Position numbers and translations under genes: made by a program
Source of the DNA: Candidatus Pacearchaeota archaeon
GTDB lineage: Archaea; Nanobdellota; Nanobdellia; Pacearchaeales; GW2011-AR1
DNA length: 64,000 nt
Direction: 5' to 3'
Assembly (NCBI GenBank): GCA_016188895.1
Contig: JACPGZ010000017.1
Span: 2,538-66,537, forward strand
The notes under the pieces: model-generated
Databases searched by the model: none
Told to the model about the DNA's origin: nothing
The model's input: only the letters and a program-made list of their open reading frames with translations
In this document: in pieces, positions 39,887-60,281 of the stretch
Layout of the letters: each line of letters opens with the position of its first letter
Numbering within the stretch: the first letter of the stretch is position 1

Positions 39887-40483
39887 TTAACTATTCCTCA
39901 TTGACTCATAGAATTTTAATTCCATTTCGGGCTGTGTGAGAAAAATACCATTAGCTGCGCTTGTCGTTGTAGCTACATCTTTTTGTTTAACTCCTCTCAT
40001 CTGCATACAATAATGCTCTCCACGAACCATACAGATTGCTCCTTTTGTATGCATATTTTTTTCCATAAGCTCAACAATTTCTTGTGTAAATGTTTCTTGT
40101 AGTGCCGGTTTTTTTGCTAGTAATTCAATTATTCTAACTAACTTACTTAGACCAACGCCACAGCCGTCTGGAATATACCCTACAGCAACTTCATACCTAA
40201 CTGGGAGAAAATGATGTGGACACATAGAAAATACAACTATATTCTTTTCAAACACCATTCCTTTGTAGTCAGTTGGAAAACATGTTTTGAATATTTTTTC
40301 TACATCCTCTTTTGTATGATCCAAACCAGCAAAAATTTCTTTGTATGCCCTAGCAAATCTCGAGGGCGTTTCTTTAAAATTTGGATCATTGATATCTAAT
40401 CCTAGCCCTCTCTCAAGTATTTCTCTAAAATGTTCCCCAATTACCTCTTCATTAATTCCGTTGTTTATATTTGCTTTTTCCAT
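39887..40483 (-). CDS. folE: GTP cyclohydrolase I (FolE type)
   Basis: ...VVFSMCPHHFLPV... (CxHH motif of GCH-I). ~200 aa. Confidence 0.75.
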   Translation of the reverse strand: MEKANINNGINEEVIGEHFREILERGLGLDINDPNFKETPSRFARAYKEIFAGLDHTKEDVEKIFKTCFPTDYKGMVFEKNIVVFSMCPHHFLPVRYEVAVGYIPDGCGVGLSKLVRIIELLAKKPALQETFTQEIVELMEKNMHTKGAICMVRGEHYCMQMRGVKQKDVATTTSAANGIFLTQPEMELKFYESMRNS

Positions 40484-40677
40484 TATCTATATTCCAATTT
40501 TTTGGCTTTATTTAAGTTTGATATCTGGGCATCGTATTTCTTACAAAAAGCTTCATGCTCTTCTGCTAATTTTCTTTTTTTATATATTAATCTACAAAAC
40601 ATACACCTGAAATATTTTCTGCCTCTTATATTAACTTCTTTCACCATTTTATCACTCCACACAGCACGCCATTTCAT
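40483..40677 (-). CDS. small Cys/His protein (possible zinc finger)
   Basis: 64 aa, FRCMFC...H...FC. Confidence 0.3.
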   Translation of the reverse strand: MKWRAVWSDKMVKEVNIRGRKYFRCMFCRLIYKKRKLAEEHEAFCKKYDAQISNLNKAKKLEYR

Positions 40678-42061
40678 CTAAATTTTGGTCAAAGCTTTGA
40701 GCAACTTTCTTTATCATCTCGCTTAATGTAGGAAAAACATGGACTGTATCTCTGATATCGTAGATTGTCATTTTGTTCTTAATTGCATAAGTGGCTGTTG
40801 TTATTATATCGGCAGCCATTGGTCCAACAATATGAACTCCAATAACGACCTTTGTTTTAGGATCAAGCACCATTCTAATTAAACCACGAGTATCTTTAAT
40901 TGCTGCTGCTTTTTCTACATGGTCTAGTGTTATTGTTCTGCACAAGCAAACGTTATATTTTTTCATAAATTCTTCTTCTGTTATTCCAACTGCTGCAACT
41001 TCTGGAGAAGTGAACACAGCATGGGGAACTTCATTATAATTTATTTTTTTCTCTGCGTTTTCAAACATGTTTAGAATAGCAATATTTCCTTCTTTTGCTG
41101 CTGTTGTTTCAAGAGGCAATAATCCTGTAACATCGCCAGCAGCGTAAATATGCTTCTGAGAAGTTTGCATATACTCATTTACTTTGACAAATCCTCGCTC
41201 ATCAAGCTCGATATTGGCTTTTTCTGTTTCAATAAGTTTTGTATGTGGTTGTAAGCCAGCAGCCAGCATTAACATTTCAGCAGATAAAATATTTTCTTTT
41301 CCATCAATTTTTACATTTAATTCTATTCCGTTTTTTGTTTTCTTTACTTCTTGTATATCTGTTTTAGTATAAATTGTAATTCCTTCTTCTTCCAAATATT
41401 TTTGTAACTCCTCGCCAAGCATTGAATCAAATTTTGGTATAATTCTTTCTGAGCGCTGTAAAACTGTAACTTTAATTCCAAAATGATGGAAAATTTGAGA
41501 AAATTCCATACCAAGTGGACCACCACCAATTATAATTACAGATTCTGGTTTTTTCTTTAGATTGAAAATATTAACATTTGTTATGTAATCAATTTTATCA
41601 ATGCCTTTTATTGCCGGGACAAAAGTAGACGCTCCTGTTGCTATAAGAAAGTATTTTCCTTTGAATGTTTCATTGCCTACTTTTACAGTGTGTGAATCTA
41701 AAAAAGAGGCTAACCCTTCTTTAAAGTCAACATATTCTTGTTTTTCAATAACTTTCTCGTAATTTTTACTTCTAAACTTTTCAACCATTTCATGAGTTTC
41801 TTTTAATGCTTCTATAAAATCAGCTTTGCCTTCTAATTTTATTGCCCTAAACTGACCCCTCAATGCGTAAAAATACTCCTCTCCTTGATGAAGCATTATT
41901 TTTGACGGCACACACCCAACGTTTACGCATGTTCCGCCAAGAGGCAGGATTTTCTCATAGTTTATTAGAAGTGTTTTCTTTTTCAGCTTGTTTGCTGTGT
42001 TTGCTGCTGCAAAAGCCCCAGCTCCTCCGCCAATTATAATTAAATCATATTCCTTATCCAT
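40652..42061 (-). CDS. merA: mercuric reductase-like FAD pyridine-nucleotide-disulfide oxidoreductase (no N-terminal HMA domain)
   Basis: LGGTCVNVGCVPSK redox-active disulfide. C-terminal vicinal Cys pair (MACCVE) typical of MerA rather than Lpd. Confidence 0.7.
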   Translation of the reverse strand: MDKEYDLIIIGGGAGAFAAANTANKLKKKTLLINYEKILPLGGTCVNVGCVPSKIMLHQGEEYFYALRGQFRAIKLEGKADFIEALKETHEMVEKFRSKNYEKVIEKQEYVDFKEGLASFLDSHTVKVGNETFKGKYFLIATGASTFVPAIKGIDKIDYITNVNIFNLKKKPESVIIIGGGPLGMEFSQIFHHFGIKVTVLQRSERIIPKFDSMLGEELQKYLEEEGITIYTKTDIQEVKKTKNGIELNVKIDGKENILSAEMLMLAAGLQPHTKLIETEKANIELDERGFVKVNEYMQTSQKHIYAAGDVTGLLPLETTAAKEGNIAILNMFENAEKKINYNEVPHAVFTSPEVAAVGITEEEFMKKYNVCLCRTITLDHVEKAAAIKDTRGLIRMVLDPKTKVVIGVHIVGPMAADIITTATYAIKNKMTIYDIRDTVHVFPTLSEMIKKVAQSFDQNLDEMACCVE

Positions 42062-42392
42062 CTTTAATCACTCCGCAATTTTCTAGTCTTTCTTTGTATT
42101 TCCGAATGTGTTTATCAAATAAATCAACTATTGGAATTATGGTTTCTTCATCAAGAGAATATTCTCTGAAATTGCCATTTTGGGTTACTTTTACAAATCC
42201 GCAATGCTCCAAACATCTAAGATTATGAGATACTCTGCTTTGTTCAAATCCCGTCTTTTCACATATTTCTGTAACTGTGAGAGGTTTCTTTCTTAATAGC
42301 TGAATAATTTCCAATCTCGTGTAATTGGAAAATGCTTTGAAGAATAACCTGTGAAGATTATCCATCTGATGAATTTGTTGTAGTTTAGGCAT
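42054..42392 (-). CDS. ArsR/SmtB-family metalloregulator
   Basis: HTH ...LTVTEICEKTGFEQSRVSHNLRCLEHCGFV. Translationally coupled to the merA-like gene. Confidence 0.7.
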   Translation of the reverse strand: MPKLQQIHQMDNLHRLFFKAFSNYTRLEIIQLLRKKPLTVTEICEKTGFEQSRVSHNLRCLEHCGFVKVTQNGNFREYSLDEETIIPIVDLFDKHIRKYKERLENCGVIKDG

Positions 42393-42442: not shown

Positions 42443-42892
42443 TTAAAATTCGCATCCACTTATAGCAGATAATCTCTCAAATGTCTGAACCTGTGGATAG
42501 AATTCGTTATTTATCTCCCATGTTGGTGTAACGCCTATTCCTTTTCTATCGCATAATTCTTTATTCTCTGAACACTTTACATAATTAAGATATTGCTTTG
42601 AATTGCCAAAAAAATTTAATTGCTTTGCTGTATATTGGCAGAAATCATTTCCATATACTACAGCGCCTTTTTCAGCCAGGCATTTTGCAAATGCGTCATA
42701 GTCGCCTGGTTTTTTCATGTATGAAAAAACAGAGGCTACAGAGAATATTCCGATTAATATTATTAATGATACTATCGCATATTTTCTGAAATTTGTTTTT
42801 TTAACTGGAGAAGAATGTTTTGCTTGAGCGTGCTGACTTAAAGCTTCTTCTGAATCAAAGCTACGATTACAAATTTGACATATGCTTGCCAT
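42443..42892 (-). CDS. membrane protein with N-terminal cytoplasmic C2H2 zinc finger, one TM, and an extracytoplasmic thioredoxin-like domain
   Basis: CQICNRSFDSEEALSQHAQAKH (C2H2). TM helix IVSLIILIGIFSVASVF. ...VVYGNDFCQYTAKQ...GIGVTPTW is thioredoxin-fold-like (VKOR-partner type). Confidence 0.5.
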   Translation of the reverse strand: MASICQICNRSFDSEEALSQHAQAKHSSPVKKTNFRKYAIVSLIILIGIFSVASVFSYMKKPGDYDAFAKCLAEKGAVVYGNDFCQYTAKQLNFFGNSKQYLNYVKCSENKELCDRKGIGVTPTWEINNEFYPQVQTFERLSAISGCEF

Positions 42893-42911: not shown

Positions 42912-43073
42912 TTAACGACCGCATCCGCCGCCGCCATATTGGCTTGGCACTGATTGTGGTGCTACTGCAGCTCCTGATATCTTGTCTGAATTGTCATTGC
43001 GCAGACTATTTATACCAAAAACAACTACAGCAAGTATCAATATTACAAGCAAGATAACAACTGTTTTGTCCAT
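42912..43073 (-). CDS. small signal/TM peptide ending in GGGGCGR (53 aa)
   Basis: MDKTVVILLVILILAVVVFG... low-complexity tail ...QYGGGGCGR-stop. Below the ORF-track threshold. Confidence 0.3.
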   Translation of the reverse strand: MDKTVVILLVILILAVVVFGINSLRNDNSDKISGAAVAPQSVPSQYGGGGCGR

Positions 43074-43115: not shown

Positions 43116-43547
43116 TTATTTAAATATTTGTTTATTTTTTAATTTATCTTTGAGCAAAAATAACATGCTTAAGAAGACAATGCTACCCCCTATTATCCAG
43201 AAGAATATAGAATAATCTTGGAAAAATGGTGTGCCTGCTATAATTATGCCTGCATTAAGTATTATCATATTTTTTGAGATGCATCTGCTTCTGAAATAAA
43301 ATACTAATGCTGTTGCTAAAAGCAAAAGGGCTGCAATCCAAAAAGGAACAGCTACTTTTTGAAGGAATAACAAAGGCATGCCTACAATTGTTATCCCAAT
43401 AACAGATAGCAGGGCAATAATGCCTAAGCAGACATTATGGCAGACTTGATAGCCTCCTAAGAAGCTCAAAACTCCTGATAATCCACTTGATATTCCAATT
43501 GTTTTTTCTTTTAAATTTGATTTTTTCATCTTAATGATCCTTGGCAA
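43116..43547 (-). CDS. 4-TM membrane protein with CxxxC in TM1 (possible MerT-like metal transporter)
   Basis: GGYQVCHNVCLGIIALLS followed by three further TM helices. Confidence 0.4.
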   Translation of the reverse strand: MPRIIKMKKSNLKEKTIGISSGLSGVLSFLGGYQVCHNVCLGIIALLSVIGITIVGMPLLFLQKVAVPFWIAALLLLATALVFYFRSRCISKNMIILNAGIIIAGTPFFQDYSIFFWIIGGSIVFLSMLFLLKDKLKNKQIFK

Positions 43548-44295
43548 AATCAGTTATTGAATTTAATTGTTGTTCAAGAGAGCCATTTCCATCTGTTATT
43601 AAAATTTTATCTAAATCATTAAAGACATAATTTCTGTAATCTGAAATTTCCTTTCCATTGACATATGCTCTTATTCCTTGTGGAAATTCTAATTCAATGC
43701 TGTCAAAGAGTATCCATAAAGGAACTCCTGTTGCATGCATATGTAAGACACTTGAAGCGTCTTCTTTGTTTAGATTATCATCTAAATGAAGAAAACTACT
43801 TTTCATATAATATTTTTCATTTGCAAAATTTATTGTATTTCCATTAACATATACTTTAATATCAGCATGAATATGCTCTGAGCCTAAAATTCCTATAGTT
43901 GATTTTGAATCCATATTGCATTGCATTTGCCCTGAATCTATGCATTGTTCAACAGGCATGCCACAAGCATCACATTTTCCATCATTATCTTTGTCCATAA
44001 ACTGCTTTGCAAGCTCTATGTCAAAGGGTGTAAGAGACATGCGACTCATTCTTCCTGCCATAGGATTAGAAGCTGCTCCTGTAATCTTTTGCGCTAAGAA
44101 TAAAGATTTAGAGGCATAAAAAAGTGCTGATATGGCTACTATGAATACGAATATTATAAAGCCTGTAATTAATTTATCAGCCATGCTTTTATTATCTTTA
44201 ACTGTGCTGACTACTTCCTTATTTTCCATTACTTCATTTTTATCTTGGATTTTTTCTTCTGGAATTATCATTTTATCCTCTTGATTCATATTCAA
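43531..44295 (-). CDS. membrane-anchored protein with extracytoplasmic Cys-rich segment and HxH motifs
   Basis: N-terminal TM. DGKCDACGMPVEQCIDSGQMQC, then EHIHADIKVYVNG...VLHMHATG...WILFDSI. Paralogous pattern to the 44273 gene. Confidence 0.4.
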   Translation of the reverse strand: MNMNQEDKMIIPEEKIQDKNEVMENKEVVSTVKDNKSMADKLITGFIIFVFIVAISALFYASKSLFLAQKITGAASNPMAGRMSRMSLTPFDIELAKQFMDKDNDGKCDACGMPVEQCIDSGQMQCNMDSKSTIGILGSEHIHADIKVYVNGNTINFANEKYYMKSSFLHLDDNLNKEDASSVLHMHATGVPLWILFDSIELEFPQGIRAYVNGKEISDYRNYVFNDLDKILITDGNGSLEQQLNSITDFAKDH

Positions 44296-44941
44296 TAACT
44301 ATTTCGTCTTTGTCTTGCATAATATAATTCTCAAATTCTGTGTTTTCTTCTCCACCAACATACATCTTTAATTCACCTTTGTCTGTGCAATAATCAAAAA
44401 TACATGAAGAACTAAACTGCTTATCCCACACATAAAAGAAATATCCTAAAGTAAGTGTTTCTGGTTTTTTGCTTGGATTATTATTTTCTAAGTGTATAGT
44501 GCCATCGCTCTCATGTGTATGAGTTGGGGACATTCTCATTCCGCTAAGACCTGTATCTATAATTTTTCCAATAGTAATTCCTATTCCTACAGGAATTAGT
44601 TGTTCATCTCCGTCAATAATAATCTTTAATTTTGGATGCCAATGCACTGCCCCTTGAGGAATCTTCTGGAGACTTTCATTAGATAAGATTATATTAAGTC
44701 CGTCATTATTGTTATTTGAAGTTTTATCTTTTCGCACAAGATATACTCCAAAAATAATGAGTATTATAACAATGGCAATTATCCAATTTCTTATCTTCTT
44801 TTTGTTTTGCGGAAAAAGTGAAGTTGATGGTTTAATGGATTGTTTTGTATCTCCATAATGTTTTGCTTTATTATGCATTGCTAAAGCATCTGCTGTTGAA
44901 AATTCTCGATTATTGCATTTTTCACATTTATAATCTGCCAT
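44273..44941 (-). CDS. membrane protein: N-terminal C2H2 zinc finger, one TM, extracytoplasmic His-rich (HxH) domain
   Basis: YKCEKCNNREFSTADALAMHNKAKH (C2H2). TM NWIIAIVIILIIFGVYLV. AVHWHPKLKIIIDG...MSPTHTHESDGTIHLE...LGYFFYVWD. Confidence 0.45.
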   Translation of the reverse strand: MADYKCEKCNNREFSTADALAMHNKAKHYGDTKQSIKPSTSLFPQNKKKIRNWIIAIVIILIIFGVYLVRKDKTSNNNNDGLNIILSNESLQKIPQGAVHWHPKLKIIIDGDEQLIPVGIGITIGKIIDTGLSGMRMSPTHTHESDGTIHLENNNPSKKPETLTLGYFFYVWDKQFSSSCIFDYCTDKGELKMYVGGEENTEFENYIMQDKDEIVIEYESRG

Positions 44942-44943
44942 TT

Positions 44944-45417
44944 TTATGATGTATCTACATTAGTACCATATGGATGAATTAATTTCCATCCCTGAATGAT
45001 ATCTCCTTGCCTGAATTTAAGTGTAAATTTATCGCTAAATTGTCTTTTGCTTCCTTCGCTAAGAATAAATTCAACTGAATATTCAACTGATGCTGTTTCT
45101 CCATCATTTGAAATCTCTTTTATATTTATGACATTGATATTATCTATTCCTTGCAAGGCTGCAAAATTCCTAAATGTGGCTAAATCTTTAGCATTAGGGT
45201 CAAGCTTTTTGAAGCCATCTGAAAAAGTTGCGTACATATTTGCGTAATCCTTATTATTCCATGCTGTGAAATACTGCCTTACAACTTCTTCTGGTGATGG
45301 AAATGTATATGATTCTTGCTGGAGCTTCTTATTTCTTATTGTTACAAAAATGACGCCTAAAACAAAAATAATCATTATAATTATTAATCCAAAATACATT
45401 ATTTTTTTATTGAGCAT
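44944..45417 (-). CDS. NTF2/SnoaL-like domain protein with N-terminal TM anchor
   Basis: VRQYFTAWNNKDYANMYATFSD is an NTF2-like signature. Confidence 0.45.
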   Translation of the reverse strand: MLNKKIMYFGLIIIMIIFVLGVIFVTIRNKKLQQESYTFPSPEEVVRQYFTAWNNKDYANMYATFSDGFKKLDPNAKDLATFRNFAALQGIDNINVINIKEISNDGETASVEYSVEFILSEGSKRQFSDKFTLKFRQGDIIQGWKLIHPYGTNVDTS

Positions 45418-46531
45418 TATCTTCTACTACTTGGTTAGTAGCTAAATTTTTGTAAGTTCCTATAACCTCTGGACTCCGCATAACAAACCATCCATCACTC
45501 TCTACACTGCCAACATCATCCCATGCATTTACAAATGAGATATATACAGATGCGTCTGGCGAAACAATGATTATTGGAACTTTTGTTATTTTATATTTAG
45601 AAATTAACTCCTTGCCTTCTTTTGATGTTATATCATATGTATTTTCTTTATCTATATACATTCCAAATCTAAGAAGTATTTGTTTATTTATTGAGAGATC
45701 ATAACATTGTTGGCATGAACTATCTTTTAGCATTATTAATTCAACAAGCCCTGATATTTCGCCTGATGTTAGATTTCTATATGGAGGAACTGTAGAATGG
45801 ATTGCATAGAATCCATTTTTTTCTCTTGCATTTAGTTGAATTAGTAGTTGCTGTATGCTTGGATAGAAATTAATGTCTTGAGATATTAAAATAGCTGGGA
45901 CATGTTTTATATCAAATTTTTGGATAAGCTCTTGTCCTTCTTGCGAATTATATTCAACAAATCTCTCTTCTTTTACAAAAACACCTCCTTGTTTCAAACT
46001 CTCTGAAAATCCTGTTAGTGAAATACATTCTTTGCAAGAAGAATCAATAACATTAGTAATAGATACCTCGCCAACAATCTTATCAAGGGCATTATCATAA
46101 TAAGGTGGGCTTATTGATGTATATATTACGACATCTTCTTTTACATCGCCAATCTCATGCATATAGTTCATAACTTGCTCTTTATTAATCTCTCCGTTTA
46201 TAATTATTGTTGGCAATTTTTCAATAGAATATTTTTCTATCAGCTCTTGTCCTTCTAGAGAATTAATCTCAATTTCTTGCTCTTTTGTTATCTTAACATT
46301 TTGCTTTTTAAGGTCATTCAGTGCATTTTCAACATCATAGCAATTAGCGCAATCTGATAATAATTTTATTACTTCTAATTCAGCTGGTTTACTTTGTTCT
46401 TCTGCAATCTCTTTAGAATCTTTAACCTTGCTTATTCGTGATTGAAGTATAAAAACATTAATTACAGAGAATAAAACAACAAATATCATCACAACATGCA
46501 AGTATCTACTAATAAAGTTTTCTTTCTCCAT
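45407..46531 (-). CDS. membrane-anchored protein with three tandem thioredoxin/glutaredoxin-like domains (CxxC x3)
   Basis: Three ~110-aa repeats, each with CxxC (CANC, CKEC, CQQC) and a cis-Pro-like motif (KLPTII, HVPAIL, KVPIII). N-terminal TM. Confidence 0.55.
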   Translation of the reverse strand: MEKENFISRYLHVVMIFVVLFSVINVFILQSRISKVKDSKEIAEEQSKPAELEVIKLLSDCANCYDVENALNDLKKQNVKITKEQEIEINSLEGQELIEKYSIEKLPTIIINGEINKEQVMNYMHEIGDVKEDVVIYTSISPPYYDNALDKIVGEVSITNVIDSSCKECISLTGFSESLKQGGVFVKEERFVEYNSQEGQELIQKFDIKHVPAILISQDINFYPSIQQLLIQLNAREKNGFYAIHSTVPPYRNLTSGEISGLVELIMLKDSSCQQCYDLSINKQILLRFGMYIDKENTYDITSKEGKELISKYKITKVPIIIVSPDASVYISFVNAWDDVGSVESDGWFVMRSPEVIGTYKNLATNQVVEDNAQ

Positions 46532-46544
46532 CTTTTATATTAAA

Positions 46545-46751
46545 TCAGCACCCGCCAACCATTGATGGAAGACTCTGCAGGTTTGTTGGAACTGACTGGC
46601 TTGCGCCAGAGCTTGATGGTGCTGACGAGCTAGGACTGCTTGAAACTACAACCTTTGCGCTACTAAGACTCACTAACTGGATTGTTTGTATTGCTGTGGC
46701 TAAAAGCAATATACCAATCAAAGCAATCATCAATAGTTCTTTTCTTTCCAT
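46545..46751 (-). CDS. small signal/TM peptide with Ser/Pro-rich tail ending in GGC
   Basis: MERKELLMIALIGILLLATAIQ...SSPSSSAPSSSGAS...SMVGGC-stop. Confidence 0.35.
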   Translation of the reverse strand: MERKELLMIALIGILLLATAIQTIQLVSLSSAKVVVSSSPSSSAPSSSGASQSVPTNLQSLPSMVGGC

Positions 46752-46776: not shown

Positions 46777-47547
46777 TCATACTAGAGCCTCCTGTATAAT
46801 TCTTTCAATTGTGCCTTTTGGATACCATAATGCATACCATCTCGCCATCTCGCCATAAATCTCTTCATCAGAATATTTATCTCCATAATTTTTAATAAAC
46901 CATTTCGCCATGCCTTGTGCTGCAATTGAGTGAGCACATCCGCAGTGTGTTATGATTGTTGGGTTTTTTGGAGAGCCGCAGCAATAATCACATGTAAATG
47001 AGTTTACTATCCTGTTCCATCTTTCTTGTTCTGAAGAGCTTAATTGCAATGAGCGATAAGTTCCCCAGTTCTTTTGAGAGGTAATTGGATCATCAAATGA
47101 TACTTGCGCTTCTTGTCCGTAAAATGGAGTGCCTGTTGGAACAACATTATTTAGCAAATCTTGGACAGAATCGCCTGTTGATGGTGTTGTTGATAACTCA
47201 CTTATTGTTGGGATTGGTTTTACCTTGCTTTTATATCCTGATATAGCTGGCTCTTCGCCCTGTGCAAGAGGCATTGGCTTTAATGTGATTTTTGAGCCAT
47301 ATTCAAACTTTCCTAGATTGACAGTTCCTCCAATAATTCCAGAGGCATATGCCCTTGGTATTAAAAGCTGATTTATAAAAAGCAAGATAGTCAAAATAAC
47401 CACTCCAGCTAAAATATAATTATTTCTAAATAAAAATGGTTCTGTATCTTGCGATACCCTATGGAATGGGCTCGTGCTCTGTGTTTCCGATGCCCTACGG
47501 AGTGGGCTTTCTTCCATTTTTTCTTCTTTTGTTATGTTGTTTTCCAT
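46777..47547 (-). CDS. membrane-anchored protein with C-terminal CxxCC...HCxCxH cluster; N-terminus encoded by the dispersed repeat
   Basis: FTCDYCCGSPKNPTIITHCGCAHS. N-terminal ...ESPLRRASETQSTSPFHRVSQ comes from the repeat. TM ILAGVVILTILLF. Confidence 0.45.
   Translation of the reverse strand: MENNITKEEKMEESPLRRASETQSTSPFHRVSQDTEPFLFRNNYILAGVVILTILLFINQLLIPRAYASGIIGGTVNLGKFEYGSKITLKPMPLAQGEEPAISGYKSKVKPIPTISELSTTPSTGDSVQDLLNNVVPTGTPFYGQEAQVSFDDPITSQKNWGTYRSLQLSSSEQERWNRIVNSFTCDYCCGSPKNPTIITHCGCAHSIAAQGMAKWFIKNYGDKYSDEEIYGEMARWYALWYPKGTIERIIQEALV
47457..47507 (-). repeat. dispersed repeat copy (two units, minus orientation) inside the 5' end of the 46777..47547 gene
   Basis: Reverse complement cccactccgtagggcatcggaaacacagagcacgagcccattccatagg. 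It is translated as ESPLRRASETQSTSPFHRVSQ. Confidence 0.85.
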
Positions 47548-47548
47548 T

Positions 47549-48103
47549 TTACTTGTTTAGTATATTGCAAGCCTCGCAGTGCCCTGTATAAATACTTTCT
47601 GCTTTAAGGAATAAGGCAAGCCCTAATAATCCTATTGATGATATCTTGAAAACAGATGAGTATTGGGTTAAGAAAGATGTTGGAATATTAAGAAGGGTAG
47701 AGCCAAGTGCAACAACCACAATTCCTTGGCAAACAGGGCATATTGCTCCAAAAAATCCAGCTAATCCTCCGCCAAATCCACCAATAGATGATATAGAAGA
47801 TGAGCGAGTAATATTTTTCTTTTCATATATGAAAAGAACTATGAGAATAGATGCAAATATTGTTATTGCTGCAATAAACACATAATCAAATATACTGACA
47901 GCTGACATCCTGCTAATTCCAAAATCTATGACAGGGATTCTCCATAAACCATATAAAAAGGAGTATGATACTAGAAAAATTAAGATAGTGATGAGCAGAT
48001 TTTTCCTGTGTTGCTTCTCATTCAAAATACTAATAGCATGTTTTATTGCTCCTTCTCCTTTAAATTTGTCTTTCATTTTCTTTTGTTTGTTTTCAATAGC
48101 CAT
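47549..48103 (-). CDS. CPxC-motif multi-TM protein, paralog A
   Basis: GGFGGGLAGFFGAICPVCQGIVVVALGSTLL in a TM helix, C-terminal HCEAC. Confidence 0.45.
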   Translation of the reverse strand: MAIENKQKKMKDKFKGEGAIKHAISILNEKQHRKNLLITILIFLVSYSFLYGLWRIPVIDFGISRMSAVSIFDYVFIAAITIFASILIVLFIYEKKNITRSSSISSIGGFGGGLAGFFGAICPVCQGIVVVALGSTLLNIPTSFLTQYSSVFKISSIGLLGLALFLKAESIYTGHCEACNILNK

Positions 48104-48716: not shown

Positions 48717-49223
48717 TTAAAAATTCTCTAAAAAATGCAATGTATAGGTTTTTCCTTTTTTTATTCTTTTAACAAGTTTTTTCTTTTCAAGTTGAGTTAC
48801 AATCTGGCTTGTTTTTGCTTTTGATAAATCAATGCGCAATTTTAATGTATTCTGGGTTATACCATCTTGCTCTCTAATTGATTTTAATGCTTTTTTTTCA
48901 TATTCATCAAGCCCTTTTGAAAGTATAGAGAATTTTTCCTCGCTAAGTTTTTTATTTTTATCATCTTCAAGTCTCTTCAAAATGCTTTCTTCTCCTTTAG
49001 AAAAGAACACAAGATAAATGCCAAGTGAAAGCAGGAATGCTAGTATGCCTATTACTGCATTTGATAATGTAAAGTAGTTTTGTATTCTTATACATTGAGA
49101 ATTTTGAGGAAAACATCCTGAATTGGTGCCGAGTACATTGAGTCTGCTTATAATGCCAATTATAATAATCCCGAGAAGAACACTAAGGATAATAAGTGCT
49201 ATACCTAACCTTTTATTTAGCAT
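48717..49223 (-). CDS. membrane-anchored winged-helix (MarR-like) transcription regulator
   Basis: Two N-terminal TM helices with a CxxxxxxC loop, then ...ALKSIREQDGITQNTLKLRIDLSKAKTSQIVTQLEKKKLVKRIKKGKTYTLHF (wHTH). Confidence 0.5.
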   Translation of the reverse strand: MLNKRLGIALIILSVLLGIIIIGIISRLNVLGTNSGCFPQNSQCIRIQNYFTLSNAVIGILAFLLSLGIYLVFFSKGEESILKRLEDDKNKKLSEEKFSILSKGLDEYEKKALKSIREQDGITQNTLKLRIDLSKAKTSQIVTQLEKKKLVKRIKKGKTYTLHFLENF

Positions 49224-49522: not shown

Positions 49523-50038
49523 TCATTTACACCACCTACATTTATTCTCTATAGATTTTGAAGTAGTGTATATAGATAGTATAATCAATGCAATTGCCAA
49601 CAAGAGAATCGGTGTTCTATATTCAACTATGAATGTTGTTGCAGTGCTTCCTATAACAGCCGCGATAATTACAAGGCAAGCAGGACAACCTGCAACCGCG
49701 CCTAATCCGCCAAAAAATCCGCTGGATATGCTGCCACCTGCCTCAACTATTGGTATTGGTTGAGCTTTATTTGTCTTAATTTCTTTTCGCAGATAAAGCT
49801 GCATGGCTATCCACATACCAAATAAAATTGTTAGTAGAATAATGAGGGTAACTTGTAAGGAACTGTTGGATAATACCGATTTAATCATCCCTATATCAGT
49901 AAGGATCTTCGGAGTGATAAAAGAAAATGAAATAATATACAGTGATAGCATTACCAATGCCGAGAATACAGCTATAAAGAAATATCTCCTTTTAGATAAG
50001 ACAATATACATGACTTTCAATATATTTATCTCTTTCAT
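49523..50038 (-). CDS. CPxC-motif multi-TM protein, paralog B
   Basis: SGFFGGLGAVAGCPACLVIIAAVIGST and C-terminal CRWCK. Paralog of the 47549 gene. Confidence 0.45.
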   Translation of the reverse strand: MKEINILKVMYIVLSKRRYFFIAVFSALVMLSLYIISFSFITPKILTDIGMIKSVLSNSSLQVTLIILLTILFGMWIAMQLYLRKEIKTNKAQPIPIVEAGGSISSGFFGGLGAVAGCPACLVIIAAVIGSTATTFIVEYRTPILLLAIALIILSIYTTSKSIENKCRWCK

Positions 50039-50277: not shown

Positions 50278-50634
50278 ATGGTAAGCATAATAACAACAGA
50301 CGAAAATTGTAAAATGAAATCTGATAGTGGCCATTGCCCCAGACCGTTAGAATCTGTTTCTGATTTTCTCAGTAAGAAATGGGCAATCTCTATTATAATA
50401 ACTATAGGTAATTTTGGTAAATTAAGATTTAATAACATCATAGCAAGACTTGAAAATGCTACTCCAAAAATTCTTACCGAACGCTTGAAAGAATTAGGAA
50501 AAAATGGCATAATTCAACGGCGTTATTATAATGAGATACCTCCGAAAGTAGAATACTCTCTGACAAAGGTTGGAAAAGATTTAATGAATTCTCTTCGTCC
50601 TCTAATTAATTGGGCTGAGAAGAGAATTAAATAA
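50278..50634 (+). CDS. HxlR-family transcriptional regulator
   Basis: CP...SVSDFLSKKWAISIIITIGNFGKLRFNNIIARLENATPKILTERLKELGKNGIIQRRYYNEIPPKVEYSLTKVGKDL. Confidence 0.7.
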   Translation: MVSIITTDENCKMKSDSGHCPRPLESVSDFLSKKWAISIIITIGNFGKLRFNNIIARLENATPKILTERLKELGKNGIIQRRYYNEIPPKVEYSLTKVGKDLMNSLRPLINWAEKRIK

Positions 50635-50670: not shown

Positions 50671-51336
50671 ATGCATAAAGAAGCCGGAGTTGAAGATTAC
50701 TTAAAAGACATTGCTGGTCACAGGATTCTTACCAGAGATGAGGAGATTGAACTAACAAATAAGATTAGAAATGGCGATAATTATGCAAGAGAAACAATGA
50801 TTAATTCTAATCTTAAATTAGTGTTTAGTATTGCAAAACATTATGCACACAGAAAGATTGGATTAAATGATGCAATTGAAGAAGGCAACAAAGGCTTGAT
50901 TAAAGCTGTTGAGAGATTTGATCCCAGCAGAGGATATAAATTTTCTACATATGCTACATATTGGATTAGACAAGCTATAGAAAGGGTGTTAGGGCAGGAA
51001 GAAAAAAGGCTTAAAAGATTAGAGTTTATTTTTTATAATATGGAAGATAAGAATAACTTTGTAGACAGCATAGCTGATAATTCTCAAAGCCATGAAGAAG
51101 AGTTATTGAAAAATGAAAGATATTCTATATTAGAAGATTTGATGAATATGCTTGATGACAGAGCCAGGACAATTATTGAAATGAGATACGGACTTAATGG
51201 CTACCATCCTATGTCGCTTGTTGAGATTGGAAAGAGAATATATTTATCTAGGGAGAGAGTAAGACTAATTCAATATGAAGCTGAGCAAAAATTGAGGGGA
51301 ATTGCTAAAAATAGGGGTTTATCTGATATTGTTTAG
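50671..51336 (+). CDS. bacterial-type sigma-70 family RNA polymerase sigma factor (regions 1.2/2 and 4 only)
   Basis: Region 2: [39 protein letters not shown] (compare E. coli RpoD [39 protein letters not shown]). Region 4.2: [28 protein letters not shown]. Confidence 0.75.
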   Translation: [221 protein letters not shown]

Positions 51337-54424: not shown

Positions 54425-54931
54425 TTATTCTAGGATTATAAACCTTTTATCATCTTTGTAATTCTTAAAGAATTCGTCGTCTTTATACTTTTCAAGAATG
54501 ATGTATCCTTTGTCTTTAAGAAATGAGTTAATCTCTTTTCTGAATCTACGGTCATGAATCATTTTATGATGGTTTGGACATAAACCAACTAGATTGGAGT
54601 CAGCGTTATTTTCATGATTATGATCTAAATGATGAAGATCTATAATTTTATCAAAACCACAGATAATACAGCTTGAAGTAATCTTTCTATATTTTTCTCT
54701 CTCAATATTATGGGATTTTATTATATTTTGTTCTTTAACCTTTTCTATATGGAAAACAGAGTTGTAGCAACCATCACATAATCCTTTAGCATGCATTGGT
54801 TTTTCTCTTCCACACCTTTTACAAGTTATTAACTTTGGTTGCCAAATTAATTTTTTATAACAAGTAGTACACATCTGTTTAGCATGATGTTCAACCTCTT
54901 TTTTACAATTTTTACAAATAATAATATTCAT
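54425..54931 (-). CDS. HNH endonuclease with N-terminal zinc ribbons
   Basis: Four CxxC pairs, then DLHHLDHNHENNADSNLVGLCPNHHKMIH (HNH motif). Confidence 0.7.
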   Translation of the reverse strand: MNIIICKNCKKEVEHHAKQMCTTCYKKLIWQPKLITCKRCGREKPMHAKGLCDGCYNSVFHIEKVKEQNIIKSHNIEREKYRKITSSCIICGFDKIIDLHHLDHNHENNADSNLVGLCPNHHKMIHDRRFRKEINSFLKDKGYIILEKYKDDEFFKNYKDDKRFIILE

Positions 54932-59234: not shown

Positions 59235-60281
59235 GTGATATATTATTTTATGATGAAAGTATATAATGGTTTATCTAGAAATCAGGTAATTGAAATTCAT
59301 TCTTTTGTTATGAAAAAACGAAAAGATTTAGGATATGGACAAACAAGGATTTATAGATTAGTTAAGGAAAAATTTGGAGTTGAAATAAAAGAGAATACCC
59401 TATCTGGATGGATTTTTCGAGGAATAAAACCATTTGGAAATGAAAAAACTCAATTTAAACCTAAGCCAAGACCTCAAAAAGAAGAGCTTTACGAATTGTA
59501 TATCAATCAAAAACAAAGCTCTGAAAAAATAGCCAAGAAGTATGATGTTTCAACGATTATTGTAATTAATTGGCTTAAATCTTATAAAATTCCTACCAGA
59601 AATCATCTTGAGTCTATGCGTACTTTGGATGTAAGAAGACAACTTAGAGAAATAAAACTAAGAAGACCAACTAAAAAGTATAATGAATTAATTCCTGAGA
59701 AAGCGTATATTCTGGGGGTCTTATGTGGGGATGCTTGTTTATATAAAAAAACGATTAAATTAGAAATAAGGCGTGATGAAGATTTTATTGACGAATTTGT
59801 TAGATGTTTTGAGAAAGTTTATGGTTTAGAATATAATTATAAATATTATAAACCAAAAAATACATTTGTTGCACAGATTAATTCTGAAATCATATCTCAA
59901 GATATTATCAAATATGGTAATTTTAAAACCCGAAGTTGGGAAGTTCCAAAAGAAATAATAGAATCGAAAAATGAAAAGATTATTGGTTCTTATTTAAAAG
60001 GTTTTTATGATAGTGAGGGAAGTGTTTCACGTTGTGCAATAACTTCTTCTTCGATTAATAAAGATGGTCTAAGAAATATTGCTCTTTTATTGAAAAAATT
60101 GGGAATAGAAACAACTTTAAAAAGCTATGGAAATGGAAAATATTGTGTTTTGTATATATTTAGAAAGGGAAGATTTAAGATATTTAGGGAAAGAGTTGGG
60201 TTTACGATAAAAAGAAAATTGAATAAGATAGACGAAACTTTAAATACAGGTTTTTTTAGTAAAAGATCTATTGCTAATTAG
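59235..60281 (+). CDS. LAGLIDADG-family homing endonuclease (two-motif, free-standing) with N-terminal HTH region
   Basis: Two LAGLIDADG-like motifs: AYILGVLCGDACLY and YLKGFYDSEGSV. Confidence 0.65.
   Translation: MIYYFMMKVYNGLSRNQVIEIHSFVMKKRKDLGYGQTRIYRLVKEKFGVEIKENTLSGWIFRGIKPFGNEKTQFKPKPRPQKEELYELYINQKQSSEKIAKKYDVSTIIVINWLKSYKIPTRNHLESMRTLDVRRQLREIKLRRPTKKYNELIPEKAYILGVLCGDACLYKKTIKLEIRRDEDFIDEFVRCFEKVYGLEYNYKYYKPKNTFVAQINSEIISQDIIKYGNFKTRSWEVPKEIIESKNEKIIGSYLKGFYDSEGSVSRCAITSSSINKDGLRNIALLLKKLGIETTLKSYGNGKYCVLYIFRKGRFKIFRERVGFTIKRKLNKIDETLNTGFFSKRSIAN

Follow-up and report, generated by a model that had tools for sequence, protein, structure and literature searches.

The two minus-strand genes at 42443..42892 and 44273..44941 most plausibly encode bitopic envelope effectors carried on a new finger-anchor cassette, the C2H2 finger of which is probably not a sequence-specific DNA reader. 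We hold this reading with moderate confidence. The genes lie in the 64,000-nucleotide stretch of DNA from a Candidatus Pacearchaeota archaeon that was analysed as a whole (hereafter the window), and both open reading frames listed in an initial annotation were confirmed. The first gene encodes a protein of 149 amino acids (family 1) with a C2H2 finger, a transmembrane (TM) segment and a monothiol (CxxT) VKOR-type thioredoxin-like outside domain, as assigned from the reading frame, homologues, an AlphaFold2 model and a match to PDB entry 3kp8. The second encodes 222 amino acids (family 2) with a C2H2 finger, a TM segment and a His-cluster outside domain, as assigned from the reading frame, homologues and an AlphaFold2 model. 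Homology searches yielded 126 homologues for family 1 and 259 for family 2, and the metal ligands of both families are kept in 100+ DPANN homologues. The two AlphaFold2 models (pLDDT of 90 for family 1 and 90.4 for family 2) each combine a beta-beta-alpha finger with one long TM helix and, at the C-terminus, a folded domain, and agree with hydropathy on the common finger, single TM and outside domain architecture described in the annotation. No finger-plus-TM genes other than these two were found in the window. The remaining CxxC/H motifs in the window belong to small soluble C2HC/DUF7128 or HNH-type proteins.

The finger of the family 1 protein (residues 5–26, CX2CX12HX4H; 42815..42880, minus strand; CQICNRSFDSEEALSQHAQAKH) and that of the family 2 protein (residues 6–28; 44858..44926, minus strand; CEKCNNREFSTADALAMHNKAKH) are both cytoplasmic in the topology described below. 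The former was recognised from its invariant ligands, the model fold and Pfam C2H2 matches, and the latter from alignment, hydropathy, AlphaFold2 and Pfam. All 89 family 1 sequences in an alignment share C5, C8, Q20, H21 and H26, and at least 90% share F12 and L18, giving the classical pattern CX2CX3FX5LX2HX4H. Family 2 and a set of 46 module sequences show the same ligand spacing and Phe/Leu core, and the motif is not a chance occurrence. Pfam zf-C2H2_jaz matched 72 of the 89 family 1 members (E < 0.01) and zf-C2H2 matched 66, the top families for the finger being zf-C2H2_jaz, zf-C2H2 and zf-met. The window proteins themselves score under the Pfam gathering threshold (21 vs 27 bits for the family 1 protein; the other score is 14.5 vs 25), while some relatives exceed it (25.7 vs 25.2 for zf-C2H2 and 24.6 vs 22.6 for zf-C2H2_jaz). 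The AlphaFold2 model of the family 1 finger has strands at residues 3–4 and 11–12 and a helix at 15–25 with pLDDT values of 87–92, and the family 2 finger is equivalent. With invariant ligands and beta-beta-alpha models in both proteins, the classical N-terminal C2H2 finger of the annotation is well founded, and a structural zinc ribbon is not what was found.

A comparison of the finger profile with the PDB matched DNA-binding fingers (Aart, ZNF568 and Zif268) at 15–23 bits per finger, and poly-finger eukaryotic proteins add up to 70–90 bits. The mean net charge of the finger is −0.02 in family 1 and +1.25 in family 2, while the Zif268 and GAGA fingers range from +1 to +5. Arg, Lys and His are absent from helix positions −1, +3 and +6; the DNA-reading positions are occupied by S/T, E, S and Q in family 1 and by D/E, A/G and M at +2/+3/+6 in family 2. 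Besides the ligands, the hydrophobic core is conserved, and so is the face of the helix that is exposed. This face is conserved in a family-specific manner (Q20 in 100% of family 1), which implies a specific ligand. The N-modules of the two window proteins share 36% identity, which is the background level.

The TM core of family 1 (residues 39–58; 42719..42778, minus strand) follows the basic linker SSPVKKTNFRKY, with a mean linker charge of +3.7, and was located by hydropathy within an AlphaFold2 helix spanning residues 35–60. That of family 2 (residues 53–69; 44735..44785, minus strand; hydropathy and AlphaFold2) follows a KKKIRNW juxtamembrane motif, and KKIRNW is common to several outside-domain families. 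As family means, the linker charge is +3.7 to +4.6 and the first 15 residues past the TM segment carry about 0 to −1. The tether from finger to membrane is only ~8–18 residues, and finger and linker together have a net charge of ~+4, with the same calculation giving +5 for the single-finger GAGA DNA-binding domain. Because the linker is positive, finger-less family 2 homologues carry a signal anchor or lipobox, and the outside domains have disulfide or copper folds, we infer from several independent lines a bitopic N-in/C-out topology with the finger in the cytoplasm. The annotation had also placed the finger inside the cell, and no sign of an outside placement was seen.

The outside domain of family 1 (residues 63–149; 42446..42706, minus strand) is a thioredoxin fold with the active site C85-Q-Y-T88, the cis-Pro loop TPTW at residues 122–125 and conserved cysteines C71, C107, C114 and C147, as defined by alignment and the 3kp8 match. 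The best PDB match, 3kp8 (E 5.5e-6), is the Trx-like domain of Synechococcus VKOR, with a target TM-score of 0.83 and an rmsd of 1.6 Å over 90 residues at 31% identity, which substantiates the thioredoxin fold noted from the sequence earlier. The active site is CxxT and not CxxC, and the cis-Pro loop TPTW is invariant in family 1. Since C85-x-Y-T88 was present in 100 of 100 aligned members, family 1 was classed as a monothiol derivative and not as a working dithiol oxidoreductase; the invariance of CxxT in the subfamily also means that the window protein alone would be unable to cycle as a dithiol oxidoreductase. A sister subfamily, separate from the CxxT proteins, retains CxxC (YGAFWCPHC...YPTWEF) and likewise has the finger anchor.

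A 53-residue single-TM peptide ending in QYGGGGCGR is encoded at 42912..43073 (minus strand). A gene for a GGGCGR-type peptide lies within 150 bp upstream of 13 of 14 CxxT genes and of none of 25 CxxC genes (Fisher p = 2.3e-8); one of the 25 CxxC genes is accompanied by another peptide type, ending in MVGGC. This genetic linkage suggests that the 53-residue peptide is a dedicated partner of the CxxT thioredoxin. The family 1 protein may be described as a VKOR-type thioredoxin tethered to the membrane, from which the resolving cysteine has been lost. Its most likely partner in trans is the C-terminal cysteine of the membrane peptide encoded just upstream, engaged either through a mixed disulfide or through a shared two-thiolate Hg/Cu site. 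The tight pairing of a CxxT thioredoxin with a Cys-terminated peptide points to an active site divided between the two or to a metal site common to both.

In the outside domain of family 2 (residues 95–222; 44276..44659, minus strand), alignment identified H100, H102, H143, D146, H150, E152, C180 and C185 as invariant. The first six residues account for the His-rich character reported for the second protein, and the metal or redox character ascribed to the outside domains of both proteins is borne out by the VKOR-type CxxT thioredoxin on the one and the His cluster on the other. Neither fold nor sequence gave a significant PDB match for this domain, and it is an uncharacterised His-cluster domain. 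Its His/Asp/Glu cluster would be exposed outside the cell and is probably metal-binding. A finger-less paralogue of 254 amino acids with the same type of domain (HIHADIKVYVNG..., LHMHATG) is encoded by a reading frame at 43531..44295 (minus strand) that overlaps the family 2 stop codon, and its homologues occur at 19 of 127 loci. Among family 2 N-termini, 56 have the finger, 56 a plain anchor and 4 a lipobox, and there were at least six events of finger gain or loss. Since half of the family starts with a plain signal anchor or lipobox and no finger, the outside domain functions by itself.

The annotation had proposed a search for the architecture in other archaea. A degenerate finger DNA pattern was scanned over GTDB genomes and JGI metagenomes and gave at least 119 and at least 120 loci, respectively. 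An N-terminal finger followed by a single TM segment was present in at least about 100 and 46 of the scan matches (at least about 145 further proteins), and the finger-plus-TM proteins among the matches listed are almost all from Woese-, Pace-, Nano- and Aenigmatarchaeota. Their outside domains fall into clusters of His-cluster domains (at least 57), thioredoxin-like domains with CxxC or CxxT (at least 40), Cupredoxin_1 / DUF3105-like domains (at least 24), DsbA (at least 13; Thioredoxin_4, 1.6e-37, active site CSFC), DUF3105 (at least 3), and AhpC/Redoxin, DUF1573, a Cys-rich mini-domain and a 6-TM protein (at least 1–2 each); this census is a biased sample, because the pattern demanded K-H, D/E and K/R at fixed positions and covers the matches listed. 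Among the matches listed, the domains carried by the finger-plus-TM cassette are envelope redox or copper effectors and not dedicated sensors. At one locus (L122), two neighbouring genes with unrelated outside domains have N-modules that are 85% identical, and the N-module variant CEICDRTFKD..GL..HNKAKHPE.VPKEKKPLPVKKIRNW was found in four outside-domain clusters. Of five within-locus pairs in which the outside domains are unrelated, three lie above the 95th percentile of the background seen between genomes. Judged from these sequence comparisons, the N-module moves as a cassette among outside domains. The annotation did not recognise the architecture as described, and we likewise found no description of a C2H2 finger, TM and redox domain combination in the literature searched.

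Taken together, finger, basic juxtamembrane linker and TM helix can be viewed as a portable anchor cassette that DPANN archaea use for many exported redox or copper proteins. Judging from the models, the finger would fold around zinc in the cytoplasm near the membrane, where it most likely helps to retain the protein and to dock it onto a partner protein or an anionic surface.

Both genes occupy mid-operon positions in a tightly packed array of 17 genes, with gaps or overlaps of at most 50 nt flanking each of them. The first gene of the array (49523..50038, minus strand) encodes a MerE-like membrane protein with a GCPAC motif (PF05052, 23.5 bits vs a cut-off of 22.8). A 374-residue membrane-anchored protein with three thioredoxin-like repeats (45407..46531, minus strand), present at 24 of 141 loci, is preceded by a 68-residue peptide ending in MVGGC (46545-46751). 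An ArsR/SmtB metalloregulator (42054..42392, minus strand; HTH_5, 4.7e-15; NF033788, 74 bits vs a cut-off of 55) overlaps the start of the mercuric reductase MerA (40652..42061, minus strand; TIGR02053, 499.8 bits vs a cut-off of 454), which consists of the core enzyme only and ends in CCVE. Over the 141 loci, the neighbours include DsbA (56), DUF7343 (42), CPxC membrane proteins (35 and 26), the three-repeat thioredoxin (24) and ArsR (21). Further neighbours are a multicopper oxidase and membrane proteins resembling CcdA and DsbB, recognised from sequence motifs and, for DsbB at locus L008, from Pfam. Families 1 and 2 probably belong to a DPANN island for extracytoplasmic thiol-redox and copper/mercury handling. 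Membership in a mer operon in general was considered and rejected: MerA is genuine here, yet just 2 of 127 loci combine it with finger genes, and mercury is a theme confined to this contig and locus L061. PADLOC matched none of four island proteins to anti-phage defence.

The regulators already in the island are ArsR, HxlR and a 2TM-wHTH protein. The last (48717..49223, minus strand) had been read as a regulator with two TM segments and a wHTH, and Pfam supports this with DUF7343 (35 bits vs a cut-off of 27.6) and a MarR match. Its order is TM1, an outside loop with GC-x6-C, TM2 and a cytoplasmic winged helix, and the Cys pair in the loop is kept by 26 of 33 homologues. With DUF7343 proteins at 42 of the 141 finger-anchor loci, it is the best candidate for a real membrane-embedded regulator. 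A sigma-70-like gene (50671-51336) lies ~630 bp past the island start, and this position is not conserved.

The initial annotation interpreted the two proteins as ToxR/CadC-style membrane-tethered transcription factors. As one-component regulators of this kind, they would sense envelope thiols or copper with the outside domain and bind island promoters with the tethered finger and basic linker. The fold is a classical C2H2, its profile resembles DNA-binding fingers at 15–23 bits per finger, and the charge of finger plus linker (~+4) is near that of the GAGA domain. The helix residues are conserved family by family, the CxxT site of family 1 is degenerate as is often the case in sensor-type enzyme relics, and a conserved N-module on varied outside domains also fits a signalling output with varied inputs. 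We nevertheless consider this interpretation unlikely and do not adopt it. The same finger is found on catalytically intact DsbA, CxxC thioredoxin and AhpC/Redoxin, and it is dispensable, as many orthologues have an anchor or lipobox and no finger, and gains or losses number at least six. It is a single, neutral finger with no base-contact residues, on a tether of 8–18 residues, and the genes sit within a 17-gene array already equipped with ArsR, HxlR and DUF7343. Given a finger that is neither outside the cell nor a zinc ribbon, together with these unfavourable functional indicators, DNA binding is possible but unsupported. A broader version, in which the cassette is a DPANN-specific transmembrane signalling output whose finger binds DNA or RNA or captures the DUF7343 wHTH or orphan sigma-70-like factors, is in our estimate a minor possibility. 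If true, it would couple the thiol or copper status of the envelope to gene expression and would give prokaryotes their first one-component or anti-factor system built on a C2H2 finger.

Thiophilic metals displace Zn from Cys2His2 sites, and by this general chemistry the finger, at the inner face of the membrane, could act as a zinc-thiolate switch or metal hand-off site responding to Cu(I), Hg(II) or oxidants in the cytoplasm, and could either adjust how stable the envelope protein is or how it assembles, or pass metal from CPxC transporters to MerA or chaperones. Every cassette protein among the matches listed is in thiol, copper or mercury chemistry, and MerA, the MerE-like protein and CPxC membrane proteins are present in the island. 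Both outcomes are improbable in our view: a conserved core and exposed helix face are what a structural finger that binds one specific ligand would show, MerA is found at only 2 of 127 loci, and a single TM helix is poorly suited to signal transmission. We give little credence to a regulator-sequestering tail of the anti-sigma or ToxS type, which would hold the DUF7343 wHTH, ArsR or the sigma-70-like factor and release it upon an envelope change. It draws on the order of Zn domain, TM and outside domain, which resembles ZAS anti-sigma factors, on DUF7343 as the commonest cytoplasm-facing neighbour (42 of 141 loci), and on N-modules that are alike within genomes, as would fit co-evolution with one partner. 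The sigma-70-like gene near the island start also fits, and sigma-70 genes have been reported in DPANN with no known anti-sigma (Castelle et al. 2021, PMC8204110). Against it, a tblastn search with the window sigma-70-like protein gave 0/127 matches at the finger loci, the finger has neither the HxxxCxxC motif nor the helical fold of ZAS, and DUF7343 is absent from 70% of loci within the 8–16 kb read.

Under the preferred reading of envelope effectors on an anchor cassette, exported DsbA, thioredoxin, peroxiredoxin, cupredoxin and metal-binding proteins of DPANN archaea would have an anchor capped on its cytoplasmic side by a C2H2 finger, in hundreds of cases. Prokaryotes rarely have classical C2H2 fingers, which are almost always regarded as DNA readers. 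The analysis defines a recognisable, portable cassette, presumably for sorting or docking, and delineates a conserved envelope thiol/copper island in a lineage whose cell-surface biology, including host contact, is poorly understood. The DUF7343 proteins, with a conserved Cys pair outside and a winged helix inside, offer concrete candidates for redox or metal regulators embedded in archaeal membranes.

ToxR, CadC and TcpP have an OmpR-type winged helix, a dedicated sensor domain and a linker of roughly 50–70 residues. The finger proteins resemble them in being bitopic N-in/C-out, with a nucleic-acid-type domain inside and a redox-sensitive domain outside, but have one neutral C2H2 finger, a basic tether of 8–18 residues and enzyme-type domains that also occur finger-less. 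Pfam and NCBIfam scans gave no match to an OmpR-type winged helix (Trans_reg_C) or wHTH in either protein, and the outside domains are not dedicated sensors that never act as stand-alone effectors. ZAS anti-sigma factors (RsiW and RslA) are similar in their N-terminal cytoplasmic Zn domain, single TM, variable outside domain and modularity. However, the ZAS domain is helical, contains HxxxCxxC and binds an ECF sigma factor encoded by the adjacent gene, whereas the finger proteins have a beta-beta-alpha C2H2 fold and no sigma gene near any of the 127 loci; a Pfam scan of the window proteins gave no zf-HC2 or RskA match.

The cassette finger shares its CX2CX3FX5LX2HX4H spacing, beta-beta-alpha fold, and Pfam and profile matches with Zif268/TFIIIA and with the dsRNA-binding U1/JAZ/zf-met fingers. 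Unlike classical eukaryote-type C2H2 fingers, it is a single copy with a charge of ~0, has no base-contact Arg, Lys or His, is membrane-tethered and is archaeal. Ros/MucR proteins are comparable as prokaryotic single zinc fingers with basic flanks. Ros is soluble with an extended globular fold, in contrast to the membrane-tethered finger proteins, and a relationship was rejected as Pfam scans gave no ROS_MUCR match.

The closest counterparts of family 1 are the Trx-like domain of Synechococcus VKOR (3kp8/3kp9) and DsbA/ResA/TlpA-type oxidoreductases, with which it has the fold, TM tether, cis-Pro loop TPTW and YVEC...C structural pair in common. The CxxC sister subfamily has motifs nearly identical to the VKOR-Trx type, with the finger anchor in addition. 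Family 1 differs from a VKOR homologue in its CxxT site, the lack of a VKOR fusion, the cytoplasmic C2H2 finger and the pairing with a Cys-terminated peptide. Monothiol thioredoxin-fold proteins such as ERp44 (CRFS) and CxxS PDI-like proteins keep the nucleophilic Cys, have the resolving Cys replaced by Ser or Thr, and form mixed disulfides. Family 1 has no detectable specific homology to them and its apparent partner is a co-encoded membrane peptide, but it has likewise kept the nucleophilic Cys and lost the resolving one, which by analogy suggests the trapping of a partner thiol.

The two proteins under study are the 149-aa product of 42443-42892 (minus strand; family 1) and the 222-aa product of 44273-44941 (minus strand; family 2). 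Both ORFs are present in the window with their respective motifs, and the protein sequences match NCBI entries HYV49_01980 and HYV49_02000 exactly (Pacearchaeota MAG, 110-kb contig). TM helices were assigned by hydropathy and AlphaFold. In each AlphaFold2 model (pLDDT 90.0 and 90.4), a beta-beta-alpha finger is followed by one long helix and then by a folded C-terminal domain, in agreement with the architecture described in the initial annotation; no other gene in the rest of the window has the finger and TM layout. Family 1 comprises 126 homologues, nearly all of about 150 aa and from DPANN archaea wherever the source is named, and family 2 comprises 259. In the family 1 alignment, C5, C8, Q20, H21, and H26 never vary, conservation of F12 and L18 is 90% or higher, and the pattern reads as a classical CX2CX3FX5LX2HX4H finger. 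Pfam matches at E < 0.01 were obtained for zf-C2H2_jaz (72/89) and zf-C2H2 (66/89). The few family 1 entries that seemingly have no finger start at a Met inside it ("MKH...") and are thus gene-call truncations.

Several independent lines give good support to a cytoplasmic finger and an N-in/C-out topology. The linker of 14-18 residues between the finger and the TM helix has a net charge of +3.7 in family 1 and +4.6 in family 2, and the 15 residues past the helix have one of about +0.6 to -1.2. Half of the family 2 homologues carry a short signal anchor or a lipobox (e.g. LLIVGCSQ) in place of the finger, which indicates that the C-terminal domain is exported. The domains borne by the cassette (finger, linker, and TM helix) are disulfide or copper folds that work outside the cytoplasm. 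These features all speak against a finger located outside the cell.

In structural comparison, the outside domain of family 1 comes closest to the thioredoxin-like domain found in the VKOR homologue of Synechococcus (3kp8), with 31% identity, an E-value of 5.5e-6, a target TM-score of 0.83, and an rmsd of 1.6 A across 90 residues. Its TPTW cis-Pro loop is invariant, as are four further cysteines, and all members (100%) have C-x-Y-T at the active site. A sister subfamily from the genome scan, also finger-anchored, keeps the canonical YGAFWCPHC...YPTWEF. Because of this fold, the invariant C-x-Y-T, and the canonical sister subfamily, family 1 is a monothiol derivative of a VKOR-type envelope thioredoxin. 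The outside domain of family 2 has invariant H100, H102, H143, D146, H150, E152, and the pair C180/C185, and no significant relative was found in Pfam, NCBIfam, or the PDB (fold and sequence). Its finger-less paralogue (43531-44295) comes next in the operon.

Since a trial on the PDB showed that eukaryotic poly-finger proteins would swamp a protein-profile search, a degenerate DNA pattern encoding C..C.[KR].F...[DE].L..H...KH was instead run against GTDB species-representative genomes and JGI metagenome contigs. The scans yielded at least 119 loci in genomes and at least 120 in metagenomes, a sample biased toward fingers fitting the pattern. About 100 of the 120 listed genome matches have an N-terminal finger (position 4-16) with a single TM helix 3-42 residues after it, and nearly all listed records are from Woese-, Pace-, Nano-, or Aenigmatarchaeota or unclassified archaea. 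The listed genome matches lacking a TM helix are small soluble finger proteins (Thaumarchaeota, Sulfolobaceae, and haloarchaea) and a few bacterial ones. The layout was present in 46 listed metagenome matches, the remainder being eukaryote-like multi-finger proteins or TM-less. Clustering and Pfam annotation of 142 outside domains among the listed matches gave a His-cluster domain (at least 57; no Pfam match), VKOR-type thioredoxins with CxxC or CxxT (at least 40), Cupredoxin_1/DUF3105-like domains (at least 24; Pfam 9.6e-12), DsbA/Thioredoxin_4 with CSFC (at least 13; 1.6e-37), DUF3105 (at least 3; 5.8e-20), a Cys-rich mini-domain (at least 2), and at least one each of AhpC-TSA/Redoxin (1.8e-20), DUF1573 (2.8e-16), and a six-TM protein. 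All identifiable classes belong to the standard extracytoplasmic disulfide/copper toolkit, and no recognised sensor domain was found by Pfam among the 142. The architecture noted in the window is shared by other archaea: finger and TM helix form a reusable cassette on envelope effector proteins of at least eight outside-domain families. There is good support for regarding the outside domains as effectors of envelope thiol/metal chemistry.

The finger proves both dispensable and mobile. A quick neighbour-joining tree was built from the outside domains of family 2 (118 in all; 56 with a finger, 56 with a plain anchor, and 4 with a lipobox). On it, finger presence is clade-coherent yet requires at least six gains or losses. 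The N-module (finger, linker, and TM start) moves across outside-domain families. At L122 (Woesearchaeota contig CAZJDG010000032.1), two finger-anchor genes that lie side by side have N-modules that are 85% identical and unrelated outside domains (17% identity), which is direct evidence of recent duplication or exchange of the cassette. Four outside-domain clusters carry one N-module variant, CEICDRTFKD..GL..HNKAKHPE.VPKEKKPLPVKKIRNW, with 65-73% identity. Of five within-locus pairs whose outside domains are unrelated, three lie above the 95th percentile of the between-genome background (0.47; background mean 0.36); the pair in the window scores 0.36 and lies below it. A conserved juxtamembrane motif, KKIRNW in family 2 and NF[KR]KY in family 1, moves with the finger.

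A 53-aa peptide ending in ...QYGGGGCGR (42912-43073, minus strand) is encoded 19 nt upstream of the family 1 gene. It belongs to a family of single-TM peptides of 47-53 aa ending in ...QY.GGGCG[R/I/L], found in the finger-anchor loci L001 (7807-7962), L003 (7826-7978), L005 (7828-7989), L011, L036, L050, L073, L082, L094, L099, and L114. Such a peptide lies within 150 bp upstream of 13/14 CxxT genes versus 0/25 CxxC genes (Fisher p = 2.3e-8); one CxxC gene has the other, MVGGC-ending type. This linkage suggests that family 1 works together with the peptide and that the lost resolving cysteine may come in trans, the second thiol perhaps forming a mixed disulfide or a two-thiolate Hg/Cu site. 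The second peptide family (62-83 aa, single TM, Ser/Gly/Ala-rich spacer, ...LP.MVGGC terminus) is represented in the window at 46545-46751 (minus strand) and at L001 (4873-5118), L008 (3129-3365), L052, L059, L064, L065, L077, L097, L100, and L127. It matched no database family and is usually encoded directly upstream of a membrane-anchored protein with three thioredoxin-like repeats (45407-46531, minus strand, in the window).

Both genes, both peptides, and the three-repeat thioredoxin protein lie in an island of 17 tightly packed co-directional minus-strand genes, from 50038 down to 39887, with junctions that are mostly overlaps or gaps of at most 50 nt. The array includes an ArsR/SmtB regulator (42054-42392), a genuine MerA (40652-42061; TIGR02053, 499.8 bits against a cut-off of 454), and FolE. 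The 64-aa C2HC mini-protein (40483-40677) overlaps the MerA stop codon by 26 nt and directly adjoins FolE; it is DUF7128 with E 1.2e-5 (25.5 bits, just under the Pfam cut-off of 25.7), and homologues occur in five loci, among them L061, which carries MerA. Of the island genes, the most conserved encodes a 256-aa protein (46777-47547) with CDYCCG...THCGCAH in its C-terminal part; it has homologues in 19/127 loci (70-77% identity in L073, L030, and L005) and no match in Pfam, NCBIfam, or PADLOC. Several small polytopic membrane proteins, unrelated to one another, have CxxC-type motifs within or close to TM helices (CHNVC, CPVCQG, GCPAC, HCPLC, and GCPTC) and are encoded at 43116-43547, 47549-48103, and 49523-50038 (the last weakly MerE-like, with CPAC) and in L001 (5661-6188 and 9081-9434). 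They recur in 13-35 of 141 loci and may be thiol/metal transporters or redox partners of the anchored enzymes. Divergent from the array are an HxlR regulator (50278-50634, plus strand) and a bacterial-type sigma-70 family gene with regions 1.2, 2, and 4 (50671-51336, plus strand). Castelle et al. (2021, PMC8204110) report such genes from DPANN, for which no anti-sigma factor is known. Downstream of the island, an HNH-type endonuclease-like ORF with repeated CxxC pairs (54425-54931, minus strand) and a 348-aa ORF resembling a LAGLIDADG-type homing endonuclease (59235-60281, plus strand), both read by eye, are possibly mobile-element remnants; ORFs that by eye resemble a primase and an Lhr-type helicase lie nearby.

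All-against-all ORF clustering of 141 finger-anchor loci gave DsbA-like proteins (56 loci), DUF7343 (42), two CPxC membrane families (35 and 26), the three-repeat thioredoxin protein (24), and ArsR (21) as neighbours, along with membrane proteins resembling CcdA and DsbB (recognised by sequence motifs, and DsbB at L008 by Pfam), multicopper oxidase, DUF411, cupredoxin, and P-type ATPase/HMA. A soluble protein of ~160 aa ending in ...CC-x-E, like the MerA C-terminus, occurs beside a CPLC membrane protein and DUF411 in 12/141 loci (L001 6190-6672, L005 7255-7752, and L082, among others) and is absent from the window. In separate tblastn searches with the window's proteins, sigma-70-like homologues were found in 0/127 loci and MerA in only 2/127, so the mercury theme is local.

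The island's most convincing membrane-embedded one-component regulator is the DUF7343 protein (48717-49223, minus strand), the commonest regulator beside finger-anchor genes. It bears out the third membrane-tethered regulator of the initial annotation: two TM helices flank a loop of ~25 residues, and after them come a coiled segment and a winged helix like that of MarR. The loop pair GC-x5-6-C is kept in 26/33 distinct homologues. An N-terminus on the inside would place the cysteine pair outside and the winged helix inside, and the protein is a candidate archaeal membrane-embedded redox/metal-sensing transcription factor.

The two finger proteins had been proposed to be ToxR/CadC-style membrane-tethered transcription factors. 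The finger is classical by sequence, its profile matching designed and natural DNA-binding fingers with 15-23 bits each (and trypanosome editosome fingers as well), which speaks for direct DNA binding and against a known non-DNA-binding zinc ribbon. Its other features are unfavourable to DNA binding. The net charge is -0.02 in family 1 and +1.25 in family 2, compared with +1 to +4 for Zif268 fingers and +5 for the GAGA domain in the identical calculation. With the first His numbered +7, position -1 of the family 1 helix is S/T, +2 is E (80%), +3 is S (82%), and +6 is Q (98-100%); in the family 2 helix, +2 is D/E, +3 is A/G, and +6 is M/Q/A. Each protein has a lone finger, and its tether to the membrane spans about 8-18 residues. 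We therefore consider direct DNA binding unlikely. The family-specific conservation of exposed helix residues argues for a specific ligand of the finger. A zinc-thiolate switch or metal hand-off is less probable still than DNA binding, and sequestration of a regulator is the least likely of these alternatives. We lean towards bitopic envelope thiol/metal effectors with a finger-linker-TM docking cassette, family 1 acting with a peptide partner; the cassette may serve as a cytoplasmic retention or docking handle and not as a DNA-reading head.

The combination of a C2H2 finger, a TM helix, and a redox domain was not found described in the literature searched, and NCBI gives the members no names beyond "hypothetical protein", "C2H2-type zinc finger protein", or "thioredoxin domain-containing protein". 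The N-terminal cassette thus appears undescribed; the two proteins themselves belong to known kinds, the membrane-anchored envelope oxidoreductases and metal proteins.
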